From Deltaproteobacteria bacterium (GTDB lineage: Bacteria > Myxococcota > Kuafuiibacteriia > Kuafuiibacteriales > Kuafuiibacteriaceae): a DNA stretch of 64,000 nt. Under the pieces are notes generated by a model that did not search any database, had not been told where the DNA came from, and worked only from the letters and a program-made list of their open reading frames with translations. Every line of letters starts with the position of its first letter. Within the stretch, counting starts at the first letter, position 1. The DNA is taken from the NCBI GenBank assembly GCA_040218735.1, contig JAVJQW010000038.1, positions 128,001 to 192,000 on the forward strand. Reading direction: 5' to 3'. The translations under genes were made by a program, and so were the position numbers. Of this stretch, positions 48,807 to 59,805 are shown piece by piece.

Positions 48807-50921
48807 TCAGCGGCGGCGTCGCAGGACGAACGCGAAGAGCACGAGCGCCGTGATCCCCAGGCCGCCGCGTGGCGTGCCGGTGTGGGCACATTCACAGCCG
48901 TCGTCGTCGAAGACGAACGGGCGCCCGCCGTCCGCGGCGCCGCCGTCAGTGCCTACGCCGGGCACGAACCCAGCGTCGACGCCGCCGTCTCGCGGATCAC
49001 CGCCGTCTCGCGTGCCCGCGTCGACGCCGGCTTCGGAGTCGTCGTCGCCGCCGTCGCGCGTGCCCGCGTCGCGCGGCGCGGGGCCTGCGTCGCGTCCGCC
49101 GTCCGAGCCGCCGTCGGGCATCGGGCCCACGCCGCCGTCCCGGCCGCCGTCCGGATCGTCCGGTCCGCCGTCGGGGCCGCCGTCCGGATCGTTCGGTCCG
49201 CCGTCGGGTCCGCCGTCCGGACCGCCGCACGTATCGACGTTTTGGCACACGGTGCCGACGCAGCTGTCGACGGTGCACGCGTCGCCGTCGTCGCAGTCGC
49301 TGTCGAGCACGCAGCAGCCGGCGCCCGCGTACTGGCAGGTGTTCGTGCCGAGATCGCAGGTGTCGGTGGTGCAGGCCATGCCGTCGTTGCAGTCCGCGTC
49401 GGCTTCGCAGCAGTTCGCGACGTTTGCGTACTGGCAGGTGTTCGTGCCGAGATCGCAGGACTCCGTCGTGCACACCGAGCCGTCGTTGCAGTCCGCGTCG
49501 GCGACGCAGCAGGCGCCGATGACGGGGTTCGAGCAGGTGCCGCCGGGGCCGGAGCAGACGTCGGCGGTGCACACGTCACCGTCGGTGCAGTCGCCGTCGG
49601 TGAGGCAGCACCCGGCGACGGCGCTGTTCGAGCACAGGCCGGTCATCGTGTCGCAGCTGTCCGTCGTGCACGCGTTCCCGTCGCTGCAGTCCGCGTCGGC
49701 GACGCAGCAGCCGGGGACCGCGGCGTTCACGCAGGTGTTCGTCGCGAGGTTGCAGCTGTCGGTCGTGCAGATCGAGCCGTCGGTGCAGTCGGCGTCCGCG
49801 GTGCAGCAGCCCGCGATCGGGTTCGACTGGCACATCCCGCCGGGGCCCGGCGTGCAGACGTCGGCGGTGCAGACGTCCGCGTCGTCGCAGTCGGTGTCGA
49901 CGTAGCAGCAGCTCGCGATCGCGGGGTTCGTACAGGTGCCGCCGGGGCCCGAGCACACGTCGGCGGTGCAGGGGTCGCCGTCGCCGCAGTCGGCGTCGAC
50001 GTTGCAGCAACCGGCGATCCGTGCGTTGTCGCAGCCGCCGGGCTCGGCGCAGCTGTCGGCGGTGCAGAGGTTGCCGTCGTCGCAGTCGAGCGGAGCGGGT
50101 GCGGGCGTGCAGCTCGCGGCTTGGCAGGTCTCGGTCCCGTTGCACGCGACGCCGTCGGGGCAGGGGGTGTTGTCGGGGATGGTCGCGTCGACCGGGCAGA
50201 ACGGGTTGGCGCCGGAGCAGACCTCCTGCGGATCGCAGACGTCGGTCGACGCGCGGCACACGGTGCCGCCGGCGACGAAGCCGTCGGCGGGGCAAGCTAC
50301 GTTGACACCGTTGCAGAGCTCGTCGACGTCACACACGTCGACGGCCGGGCGGCAGTTGGTGCCGGCCGGGGAGATCGTGTTCGCGGGGCACGCGACGCTG
50401 ACACCGTCGCAGGTCTCGGCCGGGTCGCAGCCGCCCGCGGAGCCGCGGCACGGACGGCCGACGGGGTAGAGTTGGTCGGCGGGGCAAGCGGCGCCGAGGC
50501 CGTCGCAGATCTCTTGCGGGTCACACGTCCCCGCGGACGGTCGGCAGAGCGCGCCGTTCGGGAGGAAGCTGTCGGCGGGGCACAGCCCGTCCTGGCCGGT
50601 GCACACCTCCGGCTCGTCGCACAGCCCGCCCACGGCGCGGCACACGAAGCCGGCCGCCTCGAACTGATCGGCGGGGCACTGGCCGACGGCGCCGTCGCAC
50701 ACTTCGGCGATGTCGCAGGTGTCGACCGCGGCGCGGCAGACGGTGCCGACCGGCTCGATGGTGCAGGTGGGGGAGCAGCAGTCGCCGGCCGCGAGGTTGC
50801 CGTCATCACAGGCCTCGGGCGGCTCGAGCACCGCGTTCCCGCAGACCTGCGCCCACGCCCCGGCGGGGGCGACAAAACTCGCGACGAAGGCGGCCGACGC
50901 CAAGCGAACGAACGGAGACAT
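48807..50921 (-). CDS. Cys-rich surface protein (disintegrin-like and CDDG..CT.D.C repeats) with MYXO-CTERM
   Basis: [16 protein letters not shown]; CR....CD..E.C.G....CP.D repeats; CC..DADC.DG..CT.D.C repeats; DGG linker; C-terminal GCECA...[12 protein letters not shown]. Confidence 0.9.
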
Positions 50922-50997: not shown

Positions 50998-51396
50998 ATG
51001 GGGACGAAGACGGCGGCCTGCGCCTGCGGACAGCTCACGGTGACCGTGGAAGGGGACCCGGTGCGGCTCTCGATGTGCCACTGCTTCGAGTGCCAGCGAA
51101 GGACGGGCAGCGTCTTCGGCGTGCAGGCGCGCTACCCCGTCGAGCGTGTGAAGTCGTCCGGGGAGGCGTCGGTCTACGAGCGCCGCGGCGACGAAGGGAA
51201 CCTCATCCGCTTCTCCTTCTGCCCGACCTGCGCGACGACGCTGCACTGGGTGATCGACGCCCAGCCCGAGCTCGTCGCGGTGGCGGTGGGCGCGTTCGCG
51301 GATCCGAGCTTCGGTGCGCCGACCGTGTCGGTGTACGAGGACCGCCGGCACGGCTGGGTGAACCTGTCCGCGATGGCGATCGAGCACTGGGACTGA
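50998..51396 (+). CDS. GFA (CENP-V) family protein
   Basis: CACG, CHCFECQRRTG and FCPTCAT. Confidence 0.95.
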   Translation: MGTKTAACACGQLTVTVEGDPVRLSMCHCFECQRRTGSVFGVQARYPVERVKSSGEASVYERRGDEGNLIRFSFCPTCATTLHWVIDAQPELVAVAVGAFADPSFGAPTVSVYEDRRHGWVNLSAMAIEHWD

Positions 51397-51397
51397 C

Positions 51398-52357
51398 ATG
51401 GAAGCCTCGGACATGGAGTCGGTGCGGCTCGACATTCACGGTGCGAGGCTGACGATCACCGGGCCCACCAGGGTGCGCTCCACGGTCGAGACGCTGTACG
51501 CCCCCTTTATCTCCGAGACCGGGGACGCGGTTGGCGTGCGCCTCGACGTCGTCACCGATGAGGCAGCGCGTCCTCGGCTCGACGACGTCGATACGGGTGG
51601 CCGACGTATCGACGGGCCGATGGGGCCCTGCCTCCTGCACCTCCACCCCCCGGACCGCTCGGTGAGCTTCGCGGGTCGAGGTGTACTGACCGTCGTCGAG
51701 GCGGGGCCATCGACGCTGTGGCTTCTGGATCCCGAGGACCCGGTGGTGGAGTTCATGTTGTCGTTCTCGATCTCGGAGCTGATCAAGTCGCAGGGGGTCT
51801 ATGCGATGCATGCGGGCGCCGTCGCGTGGGCAGGGGCGGGGGTGCTGATTCCCGGCGGGAGCGGGTTCGGCAAGAGTACGACGACGGCTGCGCTCGTCCA
51901 GGGCGGCTTCGAGCTGCTGTCGGACGATCAGCCGTTCGTTCGGTGGCAGGCGGGTGCGCCCGAGTTGTTGGCGTTCCCCGCGCCGCTCAAGCTGGGGCCC
52001 GAGAGCGTCGAGCGGCTGGCGGGGCGCGTGCCGACCGCCGACGGTTCGTCGGCGTCGAAGCGCCCGGTCGACGTGGGCCCGGACCTCGGTGGCCGCCAGG
52101 CGCACCGAGCGCGACCCCGTGTTCTGCTCATCCTCACGCTTACGCATGGCCTGCAGAGCTCCCTCGAGCCGGCGCAGAAGACGGCTGCGTTCGAGGCCTT
52201 GCTCGCGCACTCGCTCTTTGCCTTCGATCCGCGGCTCACCCGAAGGCAGTTCGAGCTGCTGGGGTCCGTGGTTCGCGCCGCCGACGCGTACCACCTGAGG
52301 GTCGGCCGGGATCCTCGCGACGTCGCCGCGCTGCTCAAGGCGGCGATCGCCCCTTGA
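51398..52357 (+). CDS. HPr-kinase-like P-loop kinase (RiPP/lasso kinase type)
   Basis: MHAGAV...GVLIPGGSGFGKSTTTAALVQGGFELLSDD...AFP. Confidence 0.85.
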   Translation: MEASDMESVRLDIHGARLTITGPTRVRSTVETLYAPFISETGDAVGVRLDVVTDEAARPRLDDVDTGGRRIDGPMGPCLLHLHPPDRSVSFAGRGVLTVVEAGPSTLWLLDPEDPVVEFMLSFSISELIKSQGVYAMHAGAVAWAGAGVLIPGGSGFGKSTTTAALVQGGFELLSDDQPFVRWQAGAPELLAFPAPLKLGPESVERLAGRVPTADGSSASKRPVDVGPDLGGRQAHRARPRVLLILTLTHGLQSSLEPAQKTAAFEALLAHSLFAFDPRLTRRQFELLGSVVRAADAYHLRVGRDPRDVAALLKAAIAP

Positions 52358-52372
52358 TGTGGGTGACCAAGC

Positions 52373-52666
52373 TCAGGGCTCTGCGCGGATGAGGCCGGAT
52401 CGCTCGAGTGTATCGAGGAGCCGAGTGACATCGTCCTTCAGACGAGCGCGCGGGACGTCGAAGACGGCGTCGAGCGCATCCACGATCTGTTCGAGGGTCG
52501 CTGGCGCGGCCTCCAGTCGTTGCCAGACGACGCCGCCGACCACGTTCAGCGTGAAGTGTCGCCCGGTGCGCAGGTCGAGGACCACGCTCCCGTCGGCGAG
52601 GTGCTCGGCGGCGACCTCGGTCGCGACGCGGAGCTCACGGTTCTGATTCTTCTCGGAGGCAGTCAT
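52373..52666 (-). CDS. PqqD family RiPP recognition element (RRE) 1
   Basis: VVLDLRTGRHFTLNVVGGVVWQRL...FDVPRARLKDDVTRLLDTLERSGLI. Confidence 0.92.
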   Translation of the reverse strand: MTASEKNQNRELRVATEVAAEHLADGSVVLDLRTGRHFTLNVVGGVVWQRLEAAPATLEQIVDALDAVFDVPRARLKDDVTRLLDTLERSGLIRAEP

Positions 52667-53828
52667 AGGTGAGCCATCGGTGCCAGTCGAACGCCGTCAC
52701 GGGGCCCAACATCAGGGCGCCGGCGGAGAGCGCGGCGTCCGCGATGACGCGAGCGCGGGTCGTTCCGTCTTCGAGCTGAAGATCGAAGCGTGTATCGGGG
52801 TGGGTGTCCATCATTCGGGCGAGGCGACGAAGACCGTCACGTTTGCGGTCGTAGCTGAGCGGGAGCAGCGCGACACTCGTGCCACGACGTACGCAGCGGA
52901 GACCGCCGATCGTCTCGTAGCTCGAGAGGAGCCGGGCGATTTTGCGCGCGCGGAAACCGACGCGGTCCTCGAGCTGGTAACGGAGCCGCTCGGCGTCGGG
53001 GGCGAGGACGCGCTCCGCGATCTGGGTCCCGACGTAGACGGCCGTGAGCGCCCGCGCTCGCCCCGCTTCGTCGAGCACGTCGTCGAGGTCCAGGCCGTGG
53101 GCCAGCAGCGCGACGAGGTCGGCGACGCGAAAGAGGTCGAAGCGACCACCGTCACCCAATAGCTGCGTGCAGAGGTGGACGAAGACGTCCTCACATCGAG
53201 CGGCGAGCGCTGGCGTCAGCGGGCCCTCCGTCGCAGTGGCACGAGACAGCACGCGGCGAGCGTCGAGGGTGAAGGCTTGCCCGCGCGGATGGACCAGCGC
53301 CCAGTGCAGGTCGACCGTCATCGCGCCCGAGCGGCAGAGCTCGACCTGATGGGACGTCCTCGGGGCGGGGGGACCGTTCGGCGTGTCGTAGCCGAACGCC
53401 TCGAAGGTCGACACGGCAGCCGAGACGTCGTTCGGGCGGATCAAGAGGTCGACATCGCCGAGACGTCGTTGGCCCGGCGAGTACACACGCCCCAGGAGCG
53501 CGCTCCCCTTGAGTAGGACGGTTTGGATACCGCGGACGTCTAGCTGCTGAAGGATCGGGCGCAGGGTCCGCGTCGTAGCCTCCTCCTGGGCTGCAAGGCG
53601 GAGCAGGCAGGCCGAGGCGAGTCTGCGGATCTCGAGCGGGGCGTCCAACGCGCGTTCGTCGAGGAGGTGGCGCGCGACCGCTCCGTGGACCCCGCTGCGC
53701 TGAGCCAGGTTCAGGGCGTCGTGCCAAGAGAAGTCCGGTGCCTTCGTCAGGCGTACCGCGGCGTCTCGGAGGGCGCGAGGGAGGGCGGGGCGGGCGAGCG
53801 TGACGACGAAGGCGCGTGTCGCACCCAT
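52635..53828 (-). CDS. nucleotidyltransferase (NTP_transf_5 family)
   Basis: VLLKGSAL...RRLGDVDLLIRP...VDLHW. Likely start MGATRAF at 53828; the longer ORF overlaps the B2 gene. Confidence 0.88.
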   Translation of the reverse strand: MGATRAFVVTLARPALPRALRDAAVRLTKAPDFSWHDALNLAQRSGVHGAVARHLLDERALDAPLEIRRLASACLLRLAAQEEATTRTLRPILQQLDVRGIQTVLLKGSALLGRVYSPGQRRLGDVDLLIRPNDVSAAVSTFEAFGYDTPNGPPAPRTSHQVELCRSGAMTVDLHWALVHPRGQAFTLDARRVLSRATATEGPLTPALAARCEDVFVHLCTQLLGDGGRFDLFRVADLVALLAHGLDLDDVLDEAGRARALTAVYVGTQIAERVLAPDAERLRYQLEDRVGFRARKIARLLSSYETIGGLRCVRRGTSVALLPLSYDRKRDGLRRLARMMDTHPDTRFDLQLEDGTTRARVIADAALSAGALMLGPVTAFDWHRWLTYDCLREESEP

Positions 53829-53876
53829 GGCCTCGCTGGCAGCCGCGAAACGCAATGTTAGGCTCCCGCGGACTCG

Positions 53877-54329
53877 ATGAGCGTACGGTCGAACGGTCGG
53901 CGCGCCGCGTTGTTGGTGCGGGTTGCGGCGACCATGAGCGTGGTCTCGGTTGCGCTGCGGTTCGAGACGACCCAGGACGTCCTTCGCCGGATGCTTGGAA
54001 CGTGCGCGTTGCGGCGCCCGGAGCGCGCAACCCTCGACCGTGTACGTCGGTACGTCGACCTGTTGTTGTTTCGGATTCCGTTTCCAGGGGCTGACGGTCG
54101 CTGTGTGCCTCGCTCGATCGTCATCGCGCGGTTTGCGCGCCAGCTCGGGTTCGACGCCCGCGTGCAGTTCGGGATCCGACGGACGTCGGATGGGCTGATG
54201 GGGCACGCGTGGGTCGTCATCGACGGAGCACCGGTCTTCGAGGCGCCCGGGAAGGTCGAGCAGTTCGAAGAGACGTTCCAATTCCCGACGGGTGGCCGGG
54301 TTACGAGCGTCGCCCCCGACATCAGGTGA
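53877..54329 (+). CDS. lasso-peptide B2-type leader peptidase (transglutaminase-like)
   Basis: RCVPRS...VQFGIRR...GHAWVVIDG carries the catalytic Cys and His. Confidence 0.9.
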   Translation: MSVRSNGRRAALLVRVAATMSVVSVALRFETTQDVLRRMLGTCALRRPERATLDRVRRYVDLLLFRIPFPGADGRCVPRSIVIARFARQLGFDARVQFGIRRTSDGLMGHAWVVIDGAPVFEAPGKVEQFEETFQFPTGGRVTSVAPDIR

Positions 54330-55218
54330 GTGCCCGGAATGTTCGCTCGGTTTCGGCGAGCGCCGCGTCGAGGCTCGGCGTTGCGCGGGACTTACGTACG
54401 TACTCGGCGAGGAATGCGGCGCGCAGGTGGGCCTTCGCGACGCCCTTGGTTCCGCGGCGTTCGATGGCGGCGAACTGCGCCTCGAGGTGGTGCGCGAAGC
54501 CGATCCGCGCCTTGTGGGCGTCGCGGGACTGCGAACCCGGAACGACGCGATAACGGTAGAGTGGTGCGTCGACGAAGGCGACTTCGGAGACCTCCTCGAG
54601 TTTGTAGACCAGGTCCCGATCCTCCGCGTACTCGAGCGCCGGATCGAGTCCGGCGGTTTGCGCGTAGGCGCTCACACGAAACGTCTTGAGGTGGCTGACG
54701 TAGCCGTCGGTCAGCGCTGACCGCCCGGGGGGAATCGCGCGGCACGTCCCCGGCTCCTCCGTTCCGTCGTCCGCGAACGTGGTGTAGTTGGTGTAGACGA
54801 GCCCCGCCGACGGGTGGGCGTGATAGGTGGCGAGGACCCGCTCGGTCGCCGTGGGGGCGAGCATGTCGTCCGCGTCGAGGATGCCGACGACATCCGTCGA
54901 AGCCTCCCCGATGAGCCGAATCAGCGTGCGGATGTAGCCGACATTCGAGTCGTTTTGGATGAGTCGGATCCTGGAGCCGACGTGACGTCGGATGCGGTCG
55001 ACGGAGGCGTCCGTGCTGGCGTCGTCGCAGACGATCGCTCGCCAGCGCTCGACGGTCTGACCTACGAGGGAGTCGAGGCAGTCGTCGACGTAGTCGGCGT
55101 TGTCGTAGTTTGCGATCAGATAGGTGATGAGGCGATCGGGCGAATCGATCGGCGGCGACATCGGAGCAAGAGGTGCCAGCGGGCGCGCGCCGGGCCAACC
55201 CGGCGCGCGATGGTTCAT
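54322..55218 (-). CDS. glycosyltransferase family 2
   Basis: IANYDNADYVDDCLDSL, CDDASTD, ILDADD and AEDRDL. Its ATG overlaps the precursor stop (ATGA). Confidence 0.92.
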   Translation of the reverse strand: MNHRAPGWPGARPLAPLAPMSPPIDSPDRLITYLIANYDNADYVDDCLDSLVGQTVERWRAIVCDDASTDASVDRIRRHVGSRIRLIQNDSNVGYIRTLIRLIGEASTDVVGILDADDMLAPTATERVLATYHAHPSAGLVYTNYTTFADDGTEEPGTCRAIPPGRSALTDGYVSHLKTFRVSAYAQTAGLDPALEYAEDRDLVYKLEEVSEVAFVDAPLYRYRVVPGSQSRDAHKARIGFAHHLEAQFAAIERRGTKGVAKAHLRAAFLAEYVRKSRATPSLDAALAETERTFRALT

Positions 55219-55370
55219 TCGGGGAGGGGGGTCGGGGCGGGCGTCGTCGGGCTGCTGCTCGACGACTGCGCCGTCACGTCGAGGAGCAGATCATGCTCGA
55301 CGATCGCCGGAGCCTCGTAGGCCAGCTTGGAGGCGGGCGCGTTGGCGTTTTTGTTCTCGTTGGTGCTCAT
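55215..55370 (-). CDS. RiPP precursor peptide with lasso-type leader (51 aa; not in ORF track)
   Basis: Manual translation: MSTNENKNANAPASKLAYEAPAIVEHDLLLDVTA-QSSSSSPTTPAPTPLPE. It has the YxxPx(L/I) RRE-binding motif and Thr at -2. GGGAG lies upstream and the stop is coupled to the GT2 start. Confidence 0.85.
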   Translation of the reverse strand: MSTNENKNANAPASKLAYEAPAIVEHDLLLDVTAQSSSSSPTTPAPTPLPE

Positions 55371-55493
55371 GATTGGTTCGATGTTCTCCCAGTCTTGGCG
55401 TATGCAGACACGAATGTGTGACTGCGTGAAACGATCCCTGACTTACTGGCCAGGCCGAAAGGAGTCAACCCGTGCCGTATTCCGCGATGGGGC

Positions 55494-57323
55494 TTACCCT
55501 TGGTCGCTCTGCGCGCGCCACATCTGTGCGTAGCGTCCGCCCTGGGCGAGCAGTGCCGCGTGCGTCCCGCGTTCGACGATGCCGTCCTCTCCGAACACGA
55601 GGATTTGGTCGGCGCCTCGGATGGTTCCGAGGCGGTGCGCGATGACGATCGTCGTCCGTCCCTCGCGCACGCGGTCGAGCGCGTCCTGAACCGCTCGTTC
55701 GTTCTCGCTGTCGAGGGCGCTCGTGGCCTCGTCGAGGATCAGGACATCCGAGCTGCGCAGGAGCGCCCGTGCGATCGACACCCGTTGCCGCTGTCCGCCC
55801 GACAGGAGGACGCCCCGATCTCCAAGGTGGGTGTCGAGCCCCGCAGGGAGGGTGTCGAGGAGGGCGTCGAGTTGGACGGTTTCGAGCACTTGGCGCAGGG
55901 CGTCGTCGCCCGGGCGATCGTCGAGCCCGAACACCAGGTTCTCGCGGAGGGTGTCGTGGAAGAGCACGACGTCCTGCGTGACGACTGTGATGCGCTCGCG
56001 CAGTTTGCGGAGGTCGAGCTCGCGGATGTCGACGCCGTCGAGGAAGATCTGATTCGGCGGGCAGTCGTAGAGCCGGAGCAGGAGGGACGCGACCGTCGAC
56101 TTACCGCACCCGGAGGGGCCGACGAGCGCGGTGGTCTCGCCGGCACGAGCGACGAACGAAACGCCATCGAAGACCGAAGTGCCATCGGCGTAGGCGAACT
56201 TCAGCCCTCGAAACTCGATCGCGTCGGTGAGCGGGCCCATCGGCTCACTTCCGGAGGCCACCAGCCCCTTGTCGTCGTCGGTCAGGACGTCGGCGAGTCG
56301 CACCAGCTGGGGGCGGACATCGGCGAGGGCGACGCGGAACTGGCCAAACGCCTCGAACGTCGGCAGCGCGCGCCGCGCGACGAGGAGGAACGCGCAGAAC
56401 CGTGACAGCTCCTGCGTCCCTCCACTGTCGGCTTGCCACACCGCAAACCCGGCGAGGGCGAAGAGCGCCGCGAAGCCGATGGCCTTCTGTAGCGGGGCCA
56501 CGATGTCGGTGGTCTTGACGCGCTTCAAGGACAGCGCTTGGCGCCGGTCGAGGAGGGTGACGTAGTCGTCGACCGCCGAGCGCTCGCGCGAGTAGGCCTT
56601 CACGAGCGGGATCGACGTCAACGCGTTGAAGACCTTTCGATTGGTCTCCATCTCGTTGACCTTGATCGCGTCGGCGACCTGATTCACGCGTCGTACGAGC
56701 CGGTTGAGCGCGATGTAGAGGACAGGGCCGACGGCCAGGAGGACGAGCGTCATGGAAGTCGAGATCGCCAACAGCACGGCGAATAGGGCCGCACCGCGGA
56801 CGACGTTCGACACCAGCGTCTCGGACAGCCCCATGACCCGGAGGATCGCGCTGCTGTAACCTAGCGTGGTCTGCACGTCCGCGGACGAACGTGCGTCGAA
56901 GTAGGCCTTTCCGAACCCCAGGTACCTCTCGAGCAGCGCGCCCTGCGTGCGCAGGAAGTACCTCGCGTCTCGCGCGTAGGCGGCGATCGCCGCCGCGTAG
57001 GTCGTGAGCGCCTGAAGCGTGAGCAACACGAAGATGAGCAGCAGCAACGTGAGGAAGCTCCGCGCCGTGCTCCAGGACTCGAGCGCGAGCTCGAAAGGCA
57101 ACACGGATCGGACCGCGGCGATCGCGGGCCGGGACCAGACCTCGTCGAAGGTGCCACGTGCGATGCCGTCGCCGAGCGGGACGAGGAGCGCCATCGCCGC
57201 GCCGTCGAGCGCCGCCGCGACGAAGTTCGCGCCGAGCGTCGGGACGTAGTGGAGCGGGCGTGCACCGGTGACTTCGACGCCCCAGCGCAGTAGGGCGCGA
57301 AGTGAGGGAGCCGGTGCCGTCAC
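55494..57323 (-). CDS. ABC exporter (fused TMD and NBD; MsbA/HepA-like; no C39 peptidase domain)
   Basis: TM domain; GPSGCGKST, LSGGQRQRVSIARAL, ILDEATSALD and IAHRL. Confidence 0.95.
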   Translation of the reverse strand: MTAPAPSLRALLRWGVEVTGARPLHYVPTLGANFVAAALDGAAMALLVPLGDGIARGTFDEVWSRPAIAAVRSVLPFELALESWSTARSFLTLLLLIFVLLTLQALTTYAAAIAAYARDARYFLRTQGALLERYLGFGKAYFDARSSADVQTTLGYSSAILRVMGLSETLVSNVVRGAALFAVLLAISTSMTLVLLAVGPVLYIALNRLVRRVNQVADAIKVNEMETNRKVFNALTSIPLVKAYSRERSAVDDYVTLLDRRQALSLKRVKTTDIVAPLQKAIGFAALFALAGFAVWQADSGGTQELSRFCAFLLVARRALPTFEAFGQFRVALADVRPQLVRLADVLTDDDKGLVASGSEPMGPLTDAIEFRGLKFAYADGTSVFDGVSFVARAGETTALVGPSGCGKSTVASLLLRLYDCPPNQIFLDGVDIRELDLRKLRERITVVTQDVVLFHDTLRENLVFGLDDRPGDDALRQVLETVQLDALLDTLPAGLDTHLGDRGVLLSGGQRQRVSIARALLRSSDVLILDEATSALDSENERAVQDALDRVREGRTTIVIAHRLGTIRGADQILVFGEDGIVERGTHAALLAQGGRYAQMWRAQSDQG

Positions 57324-58267
57324 GGCGCGTCCTCGGGGTGTCGCTCGGACGACAGACGGAGGAGGTCGAACCTCGCGAGGGAAGGGTCGAGCGGGCGGAG
57401 CAACTTCGCGAGCTTCAGGCCGGCGACGACCGGGCCGTGGTGCGTCATGAAGTGGGCCCGAGGCCCGCGCTCGATCGCGAGACAGCGCTGCGCGGCTTCG
57501 ACGACGTCATCGGCATCGTCGAAGAATGCGCCCGTGTCTTCGTTGACGTAGTGCCACCCACCGAGGATGCCGCGATGAACCAGCACGGGACGGTCGAGGC
57601 ACAACGCTTCGGCGATCACGCGCGGGGAGGCGTCCGTCGCGGATGCGACGAGGAGTAAGCGCGCGCGCCGCATGTGCGCGAGCAGCGGAAGCCACTCCAT
57701 CTGAGGGACGACGGTGGCACCGGCCGGAGGCGAGCAAACATCGGGATCGGGCCCCACGATCAACGTCGTGAGTCCGAGCGTCTCGTGCAGTCGGTCGATC
57801 GCAGCGACGGCTCGGTTCCAGCCCTTCACGTCACGGTGCACCTCATAGGTCCGCCACTGCTCGAGGCAGACATAGACCAGGTCGTGCGTCGGCCCCTCCA
57901 GCTCGATGGTCTCCATGCGGCGCGGGGACACGTCGGTCGGGCTGGTGAAGTCCGACTGTGGGAGGAACGCAACCGGGGTGTCCGGCGGAAAGTACGACTG
58001 GGGATCGCGGAAGCAGTACGCCCAAGCATCCGCGACCGACCGTTGGGCGGCGCTGTTGGGATCGTCGAGCGTCCCTGGGAAGTCGAGGAAGCTCGTGAAG
58101 CCGACGATCCGAAACCGCTCGCGGTACTTGGCGTGCTCGTTTCGCCAGGTGTCCCGCATGAGCGGGCACCACAGCGCCATCCAGTCGGTGGGTTCGCCGT
58201 GTCGGCCCGTCACCCTGAGGAAGGGGTGGCTCAGCTTGTGCGAGGCCTCGCTCCCCTGGGACGTCAC
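57320..58267 (-). CDS. glycosyltransferase (GT-B, GT4-like C-terminal motif)
   Basis: SATDASPRVIAEALCLDRPVLV...GGWHYVNEDTGAFF. The GTG start overlaps the RRE2 stop and the stop overlaps the ABC start. Confidence 0.75.
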   Translation of the reverse strand: MTSQGSEASHKLSHPFLRVTGRHGEPTDWMALWCPLMRDTWRNEHAKYRERFRIVGFTSFLDFPGTLDDPNSAAQRSVADAWAYCFRDPQSYFPPDTPVAFLPQSDFTSPTDVSPRRMETIELEGPTHDLVYVCLEQWRTYEVHRDVKGWNRAVAAIDRLHETLGLTTLIVGPDPDVCSPPAGATVVPQMEWLPLLAHMRRARLLLVASATDASPRVIAEALCLDRPVLVHRGILGGWHYVNEDTGAFFDDADDVVEAAQRCLAIERGPRAHFMTHHGPVVAGLKLAKLLRPLDPSLARFDLLRLSSERHPEDAP

Positions 58268-58548
58268 GACGAGGACGCCTCGATGACGAGGCCCGCGTCG
58301 AGGAGCGAACGCACCAACCGGGTGACATCGTCTCGGACCTGCGTCTCGCCGGCGTCGAACCGTGTGCAGATCGCTGCCACCGCTTCCTGGAGCGGGCGGC
58401 GCGCTTCGAGGACGCGCCAGACTTCGGAGCCTGTCGCGTTGAGCGAGTAGTAGACCTCGGTGTCGAGGTTGAGGATGACGGCCTCGCCGTCGATCTCGGT
58501 GGCGCGGGCGTGGTCGGTCGGGATGAAGGTACGGGCGAAGTCGACCAT
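58264..58548 (-). CDS. PqqD family RiPP recognition element (RRE) 2
   Basis: EIDGEAVILNLDTEVYYSLNATGSEVWRVL...FDAGETQVRDDVTRLVRSLLDAGLV. Confidence 0.93.
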   Translation of the reverse strand: MVDFARTFIPTDHARATEIDGEAVILNLDTEVYYSLNATGSEVWRVLEARRPLQEAVAAICTRFDAGETQVRDDVTRLVRSLLDAGLVIEASSS

Positions 58549-58584
58549 GCGCGTGCCCTAGCACAAAAACACCGACGTGAGGTG

Positions 58585-59805
58585 TCAGGCTGGCCCCAGC
58601 CTTCCGAAGTCGTAGCCCGTCGGCTCCTGGAACATGCGCAGCCCGAACTCCGGGACCGCGGCCATCAAGTGGTCGAAGATGTCGGCCTGGATGGCTTCGT
58701 AGTTCGCCCACGCGATGTCGTTCGAGAAGACGTACAGCTCGATCGGGACACCCTTGGGGCCGGGCTCGAGCTGGCGCACGAGGAACGTCATGTCGTCGTG
58801 CAGCTTCGGGTTCGTCTTCAGGTAGGCGGTGACGTAGGCGCGGAAGGTGCCGACGTTCGTGAGGCGGCGGCCGTTGACCGGGCTGTCCTCGAGCTTCTTG
58901 CCGGCGTTGGCCTCGGCGAGCGCGGACTTCTTCTCTTCGAGGTACGGCTTCAGCACCTCGATCTTCGAGAGGTTCGCGAGCTCCTCGTCGGTGAGGAAGC
59001 GGATGCTCGACGCGTCGAGCGCGATCGCGCGTTTGATGCGGCGCCCGCCGGACTCCGTCATGCCGCGCCAGTTCTTGAACGAGGACTCGATGAACGCCTT
59101 CGTCGGCACGCTGGTGATCGTCTTGTCCCAGTTCTGAATCTTGACGACGTGCAGCGCGATGTCGACGACGTCACCGTCCGTCCCGAACTGCGGCATGCTC
59201 ACCCAGTCGCCGATGCGAATCATGTCGTTGGTCGCGATCTGAATGCTCGCGACGAACGAGAGGATCGTGTCGCGGAAGACCAACAGCAGGATCGCGGTCA
59301 TCGCACCGAGGCCGGACAGCAGGCCCCACGGTGACTGGTTCAGCAGCGTCGCGAAGATGACGATCACGCCGATCAACACCGCGATCAGCTTGATCACCTG
59401 GATGTAGCCCTTGATGGGCAGCTCCTTGGCGCGATCGGTGCGGTTGTAGATCAGGTTGCCCGCGTCGAGCACGCGCCCGAACACCATGATCAAGACGGCG
59501 AGGATGTACGCGAGGAGCAGTCGCTGGACGATGCCCTCGGCCTCTTCGCCGAACGTGTACGCCGCGTAGTACGCGATCAGCGCCGGCGCGATCCAAGCGA
59601 GCGCGTTGAAGACGCCGCGCTCCTCGATGACGTCGTCCCACTCCCACTTCGTGCGTTTGATGATCGCTTGGACGATGCGCAGGACGATGCGCTTCGCGAT
59701 GACGTACGCGATCGTCGCGATGACCACCAACCCGACGAGCGCGGCGATGCGACGCCCGTAGGGGATCTGGTCGAGGTACCCCAGCCACTGCTCGAGATCG
59801 TTCAC
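58585..59805 (-). CDS. ybdG: MscS-family mechanosensitive channel, YbdG-like
   Basis: PIKGYIQ, GLGAMTAILLLVFRDTIL, GDWVSMP, VKIQNWDKTITSVPT, FKNWRGMTESGGRRIKR and YEAIQADIFDHL. Confidence 0.95.
   Translation of the reverse strand: MNDLEQWLGYLDQIPYGRRIAALVGLVVIATIAYVIAKRIVLRIVQAIIKRTKWEWDDVIEERGVFNALAWIAPALIAYYAAYTFGEEAEGIVQRLLLAYILAVLIMVFGRVLDAGNLIYNRTDRAKELPIKGYIQVIKLIAVLIGVIVIFATLLNQSPWGLLSGLGAMTAILLLVFRDTILSFVASIQIATNDMIRIGDWVSMPQFGTDGDVVDIALHVVKIQNWDKTITSVPTKAFIESSFKNWRGMTESGGRRIKRAIALDASSIRFLTDEELANLSKIEVLKPYLEEKKSALAEANAGKKLEDSPVNGRRLTNVGTFRAYVTAYLKTNPKLHDDMTFLVRQLEPGPKGVPIELYVFSNDIAWANYEAIQADIFDHLMAAVPEFGLRMFQEPTGYDFGRLGPA

Follow-up and report, generated by a model that had tools for sequence, protein, structure and literature searches.

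A cyclase-free gene island with a lasso-type leader peptidase that probably makes a linear modified peptide in Myxococcota

The question raised by this locus is what a set of lasso-type leader-binding, leader-cleaving and peptide-modifying enzymes makes when no lasso cyclase stands beside it. The set lies at 51398-58548 of the window, the 64,000-nucleotide stretch of a Myxococcota genome that was analysed here and to which all coordinates without a contig or locus name refer. A preliminary description of this DNA had placed nine contiguous genes between a GFA gene (50998-51396) and an MscS gene (58585-59805), had noted translational coupling among several of them, and had proposed that lasso leader recognition and cleavage were reused to build an exported linear peptide with phosphate, nucleotide or sugar on its Ser/Thr residues, which might also prime a glycan. 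Families were assigned by Pfam and NCBIfam profile scans of the window's proteins, which recovered all nine genes, intact, at the positions and in the families first given; the couplings were also borne out when the junctions were read. The reading that explains the locus best is that the island probably makes a linear modified ribosomal peptide by a pathway resembling that of the linear polyphosphorylated peptides (LPP), with a lasso-type B2 cysteine peptidase replacing the SipW-like signal peptidase.

The precursor, its leader and the enzymes around it

The precursor is a 51-residue open reading frame (ORF), MSTNENKNANAPASKLAYEAPAIVEHDLLLDVTAQSSSSSPTTPAPTPLPE, in which Y18, P21, I23 and T33 are spaced exactly as in YxxPxL...T(-2), the leader motif of lasso precursors that is bound by a recognition element (RRE) for peptides that are made on the ribosome and modified after translation (RiPPs). 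The core, (A)QSSSSSPTTPAPTPLPE, opens with Gln or Ala-Gln and has 17-18 residues, of which five are Ser, three Thr and five Pro. There is no Asp or Glu at positions 7-9 and the sole acidic residue is the C-terminal Glu, so that the core has no acceptor for a lasso ring. The peptide had no Pfam or NCBIfam match, and a word-based homologue search returned the query alone.

A cyclase-free system with a leader of this kind was described by Popov et al. (Nat Commun, May 2026; PMC13381572); statements on this and the other published systems draw on the accessible part of each article. The LPP genes, lppA-K-B-S-D-N, are found in Paenibacillus alginolyticus and other Bacillota. They encode a core of a SipW-like signal peptidase I of archaeal type (SpI; LppS, TIGR02228), a discrete PqqD-type RRE, an HprK-like kinase, a nucleotidyltransferase of Pfam family NTP_transf_5 (LppN; Supplementary Data 2) and an MsbA-like exporter. 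The precursors carry the motif YxxPxVLxHQxIxFETxxS; in a heterologous host they were cut after the Thr, and Ser3 of the core, which begins with AQS, received one to four phosphates. Of the LPP-type signal-peptidase genes, only about a third were linked to a macrolactam cyclase and B2, which the authors ascribed to co-localised lasso clusters; the LPP set itself is described there as free of both cyclase and B2, and in the neighbourhoods of Supplementary Data 2 B2 (Transglut_core3, 39) always occurs with a cyclase (39).

When short motifs were compared by eye, the window leader YEAPAIVEHDLLLDVTAQS fitted the LPP motif at Y, P, +5, +6, H(+8), +11, T(+15) and S(+18), both +5 and +6 being hydrophobic, and departed from it at Q(+9), F(+13) and E(+14). 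At its end, YEAPAIVEHDLLLDVT-AQS, the T-AQS junction is identical to the LPP junction and S36 takes the place of LPP Ser3. In a six-frame translation of the genome (23,212,656 residues) the relaxed motif Y..P.[VIL][VIL].H.{6}T..S matched once, at the 51-residue ORF, and the looser Y..P.[VILAF].{9}T..S matched 18 times; the expressions were composed after both the window peptide and the published consensus had been seen, so the single match shows uniqueness and is not an unbiased probability.

The gene complement is similar as well. Like the LPP clusters, the island is cyclase-free and encodes an HprK-like kinase, discrete PqqD-type RREs, an NTP_transf_5 protein, an MsbA-like exporter and glycosyltransferases. 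It differs in that its peptidase is a lasso B2 cysteine protease whereas that of the LPP clusters is SpI, and in its set of two RREs, one precursor, one peptidase and two glycosyltransferases. Its core is Ser/Thr/Pro-rich, whereas the LPP cores in part of Supplementary Data 1 are mostly Gly/Asn/Pro-rich, and its host belongs to the Myxococcota, whereas the LPPs were called 'restricted to the Bacillota' by their authors (PMC13381572).

Further evidence on the leader came from a distant relative. A metagenome scan with kinase P0008, whose protein cluster includes one named from a Nitrospirota metagenome-assembled genome (MAG), found one locus of 7.6 kb (L096:1-7579) with a kinase 92% identical to P0008. 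The contig encodes a RimK-type ATP-grasp protein, a PqqD protein (RRE), two HprK-like kinases, a fatty-acid-hydroxylase-family protein and an NTP_transf_5 protein; no Asn synthase, B2 or other peptidase was found on it. Four small precursor ORFs share a near-identical leader, ..KESY.EPVLI.HELLRDVTG.., followed by differing cores, and alignment with the window precursor gave K, Y, P, LL, D and T in common. This homology is independent evidence that the 51-residue ORF is a real precursor, belonging to a leader family that spans phyla. The L096 locus may be a further branch of that family with hydroxylated or ATP-grasp-modified products. When a hidden Markov model (HMM) of the five leaders was run against 401 Myxococcota genomes, the window peptide was the sole clear match (E 9e-18); the remaining matches had E of at least 0.003 and lay mostly within long ORFs, apart from one 35-residue frame (L101) without cluster genes adjoining.

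The enzymes keep their expected residues. The kinase P-loop GSGFGKST and a DD motif were invariant in two alignments with relatives, and its matches in the PDB were confined to the HprK P-loop region. It is the sole strong match of its kind in the genome (268 bits, vs a 43-bit partial match on contig C9). HMMER returned 7,236 relatives at E<=1e-3 and two at E<=1e-30 (P0002 and P0003, encoded on metagenome contigs of 2.3 and 3.8 kb), and a word-based search with the kinase returned the query alone. The B2 Cys (GRCVPRS) and His (GHAWV) were conserved in 13 of 13 aligned B2 domains. B2 and the nucleotidyltransferase are each single-copy in the genome.

For both RREs the best PDB match was TbiB1 (5v1u), with E 9e-9 for RRE1 and 3.8e-10 for RRE2. 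RRE1 scored 50 and 42 bits against the lasso PqqD models, below their cut-offs. Matches of the two proteins to the 2026 PqqD entries 9x8z_B and 9x90_B, which we take, as a guess, to be LppB and PbaB1, were weak (13.8-26.7 bits). By eye, both RREs have the Asn (..LN..G) and Asp (DDVTRL) that hold the Pro and Tyr of YxxP according to the LPP article. A predicted complex of RRE1, RRE2 and precursor scored 0.02 vs a mark of 0.34, which is evidence neither way. The one further PqqD match of the genome is beside a radical SAM enzyme on contig C28 and forms part of a second, unrelated RiPP-like locus (C28:77098-81640; L056:7098-11640), where a 193-residue PqqD-domain protein, a 62-residue ORF, the radical SAM enzyme and a nitroreductase-family protein are encoded.

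Lasso cyclases and cyclase-free relatives

The preliminary description had recognised no asparagine-synthetase-like lasso cyclase in the window and had left the rest of the genome to be searched. The assembly comprises 11.6 Mb in 70 contigs and is 96.5% complete. It gave 11 matches to Asn_synthase (PF00733) in 10 ORFs, none of them on the window's contig. Nine of the 10 ORFs were scanned against NCBIfam, the one omitted being a 258-residue ORF on contig C39 with a short PP-loop match, and the highest score that any of the nine reached with the lasso cyclase model NF033535 was 283 bits vs a cut-off of 525. Eight of the nine pass the model for glutamine-hydrolysing asparagine synthase and begin MCG. 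The ninth, on contig C17, is divergent and lacks the N-terminal Cys; it is surrounded by genes for LigD, ATP-grasp/phosphatase and methyltransferase proteins, and neither an RRE nor B2 lies close to it. As far as an incomplete assembly allows, no cognate cyclase was thus found, an outcome that favours the first interpretation. The C17 gene itself (C17:181988-183958; L055:8989-10944, minus strand) combines GATase_7 with a short Asn_synthase match, and the proteins encoded near it include an 880-residue ATP-grasp/low-molecular-weight phosphatase fusion and a LigD primase-polymerase.

Known clusters that combine these enzymes with a cyclase were compared. A review (PMC8498205) confirms the earlier statement that RRE, B2, kinase and nucleotidyltransferase occur together in cyclase-bearing paeninodin- and pseudomycoidin-type clusters. 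The paeninodin-type clusters use a homologue of HPr kinase to phosphorylate the Ser at the C terminus of the precursor, and in the pseudomycoidin cluster a nucleotidyltransferase adds a hexose to the phosphate of phosphoserine. In the Bsf system of Bradymonas sediminis, BsfK phosphorylates Ser3 and BsfB1 aids both the kinase and BsfB2 (PMC10368454). The island resembles these systems in its B1-type RREs, B2, HprK-like kinase and ABC (ATP-binding cassette) exporter, in its nucleotidyltransferase as regards pseudomycoidin, and in its YxxPxL-type leader with Thr at -2. However, they have a macrolactam cyclase and a core with an Asp or Glu acceptor, and the window has neither; paeninodin and pseudomycoidin are modified on a C-terminal Ser, whereas the window core ends in Glu. 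Of the features by which lasso clusters are recognised, the island thus has B2 (NF033537, 56.4 vs 33 bits) and two PqqD proteins, and lacks a macrolactam cyclase (NF033535/NF033561) and a core with Asp/Glu at 7-9 and a small residue at position 1. Membership of NCBIfam's HPr-rel-A system, in which HprK-related kinase A (TIGR04352, the best NCBIfam match of the window kinase) is paired with a PqqD chaperone (TIGR04353), was considered and rejected: the kinase reached 54 vs 200 bits, RRE1 31.9 vs 35, and RRE2 had no match.

Relatives of the island were then sought in its phylum. A sample of 301 genomes contained 29 with a B2 match above the cut-off and 38 B2 loci, which were annotated by tblastn, seven of them being checked with Pfam. 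Genome G195, which is unpublished, enters the tallies of the phylum searches and supports no other claim. In half of the loci (19/38) an HprK-like kinase is encoded but the examined stretch, at least 14 kb in 16 cases and a short contig in three, contains no Asn synthase; homologous clusters are therefore not always cyclase-bearing, a point on which the first interpretation had depended. Eight others have an Asn-synthase gene beside B2/RRE and are ordinary lasso clusters, and 11 are of other kinds or truncated. In the 19 cyclase-free loci B2 is mostly fused to an RRE, an NTP_transf_5 gene is usual and an ABC exporter frequent. No full-length PF00733 match lies within 19 kb of six of these loci, from five near-complete Anaeromyxobacteraceae genomes; the nearest matches, weak and partial, lay about 19-21 kb away, at two of the loci. 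When named genomes were scanned with an alignment of the B2-RRE fusion, 19 loci were returned, all of Anaeromyxobacter type; their MAGs bear the labels Anaeromyxobacter, Anaeromyxobacteraceae, Deltaproteobacteria or 'delta proteobacterium'. Several of the 19 are identical with loci of the phylum sample, and on this ground the phylum of the window was taken to be Myxococcota.

Precursor-like ORFs, 10 in all, were found in nine of the 19 cyclase-free loci of the phylum sample. They have Y..PR[ILV], Thr at +15 and mostly Ser or Thr at +17 or +18, and their cores are short and Gly-rich with no consistent acidic residue at positions 7-9; by eye, these Anaeromyxobacteraceae cores resemble the Gly/Asn-rich cores of Bacillota LPPs in the accessible part of the LPP data. 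The Anaeromyxobacteraceae loci thus share with the island the phylum, a B2 without cyclase, the kinase, NTP_transf_5, often the exporter, and the leader pattern. They differ in that B2 and RRE are fused and carry TTCLYRSL, whereas those of the window are discrete and divergent, and in their Gly-rich rather than Ser/Thr/Pro-rich cores. Queried by tblastn with only the GT2 (family-2 glycosyltransferase) and GT4-like proteins of the window, they gave no glycosyltransferase match. No paper describing these cyclase-free loci was found.

A quick maximum-likelihood tree of 48 kinases, with support from the Shimodaira-Hasegawa-like approximate likelihood ratio test (SH-aLRT), midpoint rooting and metagenome sequences that lack locus context, was divided by a split of 99% support. 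All five kinases from cyclase loci are on one side, together with three from cyclase-free loci whose B2 and RRE are discrete. On the other are 40 kinases, namely that of the window, 24 metagenome representatives and 15 from cyclase-free loci, the Anaeromyxobacteraceae among them.

Several individual loci were recorded. The Anaeromyxobacteraceae sets include L047:7553-11532, L050:4851-10386, L052:5854-10299, L053:6442-14275, L064:6921-14968 and L070:6957-14149. In their fusion protein the peptidase is N-terminal and PqqD C-terminal, with the motif TTCLYRSL, and several of the loci also encode a PD40-repeat protein and ORFs of 330-360 residues lacking a Pfam match. A Myxococcota locus (L048:42-8856) in which an RRE is surrounded by two Asn-synthase/cyclase-like genes and by two HprK-like kinases may be a doubled phosphorylated-lasso cluster. 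Closer to the window's host, the nucleotidyltransferase query returned nothing in the same-genus genome (75% complete) and matches of 30-33% identity in three of 19 same-family genomes. The only comparable set in the family (L065:9871-19430, genome G010) consists of a small B2 and, 7 kb on, genes for an RRE, an NTP_transf_5 protein and an HprK-like kinase; its 20 kb contain no Asn synthase, and a precursor was not recognised there.

Layout of the island and alternative explanations

The features of the island are given in Table 1. The nucleotidyltransferase is listed in a short form; its long ORF extends to 54281, with the Pfam match starting at residue 183 of the long ORF and B2 on the opposite strand upstream. 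The ABC exporter is a fused permease and ATPase without a peptidase domain. The second glycosyltransferase has a weak Pfam match but a confident structure-atlas model (pTM, the predicted template-modelling score, 0.85), which matched GT4/Glycos_transf_1-type clusters at TM 0.82-0.84, a minority of whose members carry Glycos_transf_1.

Table 1. Features of the nine-gene island, with coordinates in the window
Feature	Coordinates	Strand	Basis of assignment
HprK-like peptide Ser kinase, 319 aa	51398..52357	+	PF07475 31.3 bits; TIGR04352 54 bits
RRE1, discrete PqqD-type leader-binding protein, 97 aa	52373..52666	-	PqqD E 7.7e-17
NTP_transf_5 nucleotidyltransferase, 397 aa	52635..53828	-	PF14907 114 bits, positions 2-248 of 249
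Lasso-type B2 cysteine leader peptidase, 150 aa	53877..54329	+	NF033537 56.4 bits (cut-off 33); Transglut_core3 E 1.3e-17
Family-2 glycosyltransferase (GT2), 298 aa	54322..55218	-	Glycos_transf_2 E 1.4e-21
Precursor ORF, 51 aa	55215..55370	-	Leader residues 1-33/34, Y18xxP21xI23...T33; core (A)QSSSSSPTTPAPTPLPE
MsbA-like ABC exporter, 609 aa	55494..57323	-	ABC_membrane and ABC_tran
Second glycosyltransferase, GT4/Glycos_transf_1-like, 315 aa	57320..58267	-	Glyco_trans_1_4 E 7.4e-5, below cut-off
RRE2, second discrete PqqD-type leader-binding protein, 94 aa	58264..58548	-	PqqD E 1.8e-17
Terminator-like hairpin between mscS and RRE2	58568..58586	-	Consensus scan only; weak evidence

The genes are closely packed. 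As read from the sequence, the stop of the precursor overlaps the ATG start of GT2 (ATGA), the stop of RRE2 overlaps the start of the second glycosyltransferase (GTGA), and the stop of the latter overlaps the GTG start of the exporter (GTGA); the first 32 nt of RRE1 overlap the 3' end of the nucleotidyltransferase gene. What most distinguishes the island is the coupling of an RRE with the GT4-like enzyme and the exporter, and of the precursor with GT2. GC content at third codon positions (GC3) is 0.81-0.88 across the cluster (0.88 for the precursor and 0.86 for the second glycosyltransferase on its strand) vs 0.92-0.95 in GFA, MscS and neighbouring genes. No polysaccharide genes flank the island, and with the lower GC3 this led to its being read as a self-contained unit. 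Its base composition is consistent with an island that was possibly gained by horizontal transfer. A hairpin consensus scan found eight sites, vs 3.7 +/- 1.9 in shuffles, and the one at 58568..58586 is the probable upstream boundary of an RRE2-glycosyltransferase-ABC transcript. A sigma-70 promoter scan found no sites; a TTGACT upstream of the precursor, spotted by eye, was not accepted as promoter evidence. Immediately upstream of GFA, at 48807-50921 on the minus strand, lies a gene for a 704-residue, secreted-looking, Cys-rich repeat protein whose repeats match Disintegrin and Dictyostelium CTDC.

The possibility was considered that GT2, the GT4-like enzyme and the MsbA-like protein make and flip a glycolipid or polysaccharide, and that the peptide genes regulate or prime that glycan or are an independent neighbour. 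MsbA and HepA are the transporter's top NCBIfam matches, MsbA being first with 374 bits, below its cut-off. The LPP clusters often lie inside glycosyltransferase-rich capsule loci, as do paeninodin clusters, and their authors were unable to say which of the glycosyltransferases modify the peptide (PMC13381572). However, the translational couplings of the precursor to GT2, and of RRE2 to the GT4-like enzyme and exporter, tie both glycosyltransferases to the peptide machinery. Moreover, the island has one GC3 signature throughout and no other polysaccharide genes at its borders, and the MsbA-like exporter is itself a core gene of the LPP set in the published account. A pathway of this kind is unlikely, though it is the alternative that survives best.

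It was also considered that the island is the remnant of a phosphorylated lasso cluster of the paeninodin or Bsf type that has lost its cyclase and is drifting to loss of function. The RREs and B2 do score best against lasso models, with TbiB1 as the best PDB match; the cluster was not found in the same-genus genome, only weak nucleotidyltransferase matches occur in the family, and the kinase has no close database relative. Against this, the nine ORFs are intact with four overlapping junctions, the catalytic Cys and His and the P-loop are kept, and no non-coding gap within the cluster exceeds 123 nt, too little to hold a cyclase pseudogene. Strain variation gave further information. Near-identical cluster DNA was present in 16 DNA runs from six studies, and contig pieces at about 99% identity covered the cluster in four runs from two studies other than the probable source. 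All four had an in-frame 3-nt deletion at 51580, in the N-terminal half of the kinase, and this was the one indel. Among 40 differences listed (there were 123 further), 22 fell in the nine genes, 17 synonymous and five nonsynonymous, while 17 were in flanking genes and one was intergenic. The pattern fits purifying selection rather than decay, a reading that rests on this subset of the differences and on contigs, not reads. A leader that fits the LPP motif, a core without ring acceptor and the fact that cyclase-free sets are the commonest context of B2 in the phylum (19/38) argue in the same direction, and decay is accordingly improbable.

Least probable of all, and scarcely to be expected, is a true lasso peptide whose cyclase is encoded elsewhere, by an Asn-synthase paralogue or in the roughly 3.5% of the genome that is unassembled: the 10 Asn_synthase-family ORFs, the divergent C17 protein and an assembly in 70 contigs leave room for it, but no scanned ORF reaches the lasso model, eight are ordinary glutamine-dependent asparagine synthases, the C17 gene has no RRE or B2 around it, the 17-residue core starts with Gln or Ala-Gln and lacks Asp/Glu at 7-9, and six related cyclase-free loci from near-complete genomes have no full-length Asn_synthase match within 19 kb. 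Even taken together, the three alternatives describe a minority prospect.

Proposed pathway and its meaning

An LPP-like pathway with B2 in the place of SpI would run as follows. One or both of the PqqD-type RREs would bind the YxxPxI motif in the precursor's leader, and the HprK-like kinase, aided by an RRE, would phosphorylate a Ser at the beginning of the run of Ser residues. Two candidate sites are S36, which is three residues past the conserved Thr as is Ser3 of LppA, and S37, which would become Ser3 after a B2-type cut, as in BsfA. The phosphate may then receive a sugar or nucleotide from the NTP_transf_5 enzyme, a step reported for pseudomycoidin, and the GT4-like enzyme coupled to RRE2 and the GT2 coupled to the precursor may extend the glycan or O-glycosylate the Ser/Thr/Pro-rich core. 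B2, with an RRE, would remove the leader after T33-A34, following the lasso rule of Thr at -2. The MsbA-like transporter would export the product, and no macrolactam would be formed.

Several observations weigh against this pathway. Its chemistry is drawn by analogy throughout, while the observations themselves consist of gene content, motifs and comparative data. The kinase falls below the cut-offs of both its models (31.3 vs 33.3 bits for PF07475, 54 vs 200 for TIGR04352) and its closest relative, P0002, is 35% identical, so that neither substrate nor site can be transferred with confidence. The precursors of L096 have Lys, not Ser, at T+3; conservation of the Ser position therefore does not extend to the wider family. 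TIGR02228 had no match across the 96.5%-complete genome, the nine cluster genes included, and without SpI the island falls outside the LPP clusters as strictly defined. LppN was inactive in the heterologous host (PMC13381572), so that even the model system gives no proof of the nucleotidyltransferase step. The targets of the two glycosyltransferases could be lipid or polysaccharide instead of peptide. Among the runs listed with cluster DNA, none is on record as RNA. The post hoc motif and the quick kinase tree, with its metagenome sequences detached from their loci, also count here.

The claim to novelty has to be narrowed as well. The preliminary description had presented the locus as a candidate new system, whereas cyclase-free clusters of kinase, RRE, NTP_transf_5 and MsbA-like exporter were already published in May 2026 (PMC13381572). 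The reuse of lasso leader recognition and cleavage for an exported linear peptide remains the best-supported reading, but it is not new in kind. Cyclase-free linear polyphosphorylated peptides are already known, as the accessible part of that article has it from the Bacillota only and with a signal-peptidase-type leader protease; new here are B2 for SpI, the Myxococcota host, two RREs, the integrated glycosyltransferases and a mucin-like core. In the literature within reach, which excludes most subscription journals, no description of a B2-dependent cyclase-free cluster was found beyond the LPP article.

The couplings described above are the basis for a bolder reading, in which the product is a leader-directed phosphoglycopeptide. 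It would be a RiPP chemotype not seen before: a linear peptide processed by B2, with a Ser in its mucin-like Ser/Thr/Pro core phosphorylated by the RRE-guided kinase, a sugar attached through a phosphodiester by the NTP_transf_5 enzyme, and a glycan built before export by two leader-dependent glycosyltransferases, one of them RRE-coupled. This fuller proposal is tentative and on present evidence doubtful.

With regard to the LPP-like pathway as a whole, the results suggest that its leader logic (YxxP, Thr at +15, Ser at +18) and its kinase/nucleotidyltransferase/exporter core occur in the Myxococcota, and probably also in a Nitrospirota-like lineage. They further suggest that the leader peptidase is an exchangeable module, a lasso B2 here and SpI in the Bacillota, and that glycosyltransferases can be tied in directly through translational coupling to precursor and RRE. 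A nine-gene island without polysaccharide neighbours is a cleaner test bed for the roles of the nucleotidyltransferase and glycosyltransferases than the capsule-embedded loci of the Bacillota. If the phosphoglycopeptide reading is true, the product would be a ribosomally primed phosphoglycan and, together with the Anaeromyxobacteraceae loci and L096, would mark an LPP-like family that extends over several phyla and uses interchangeable peptidases, SpI or B2.

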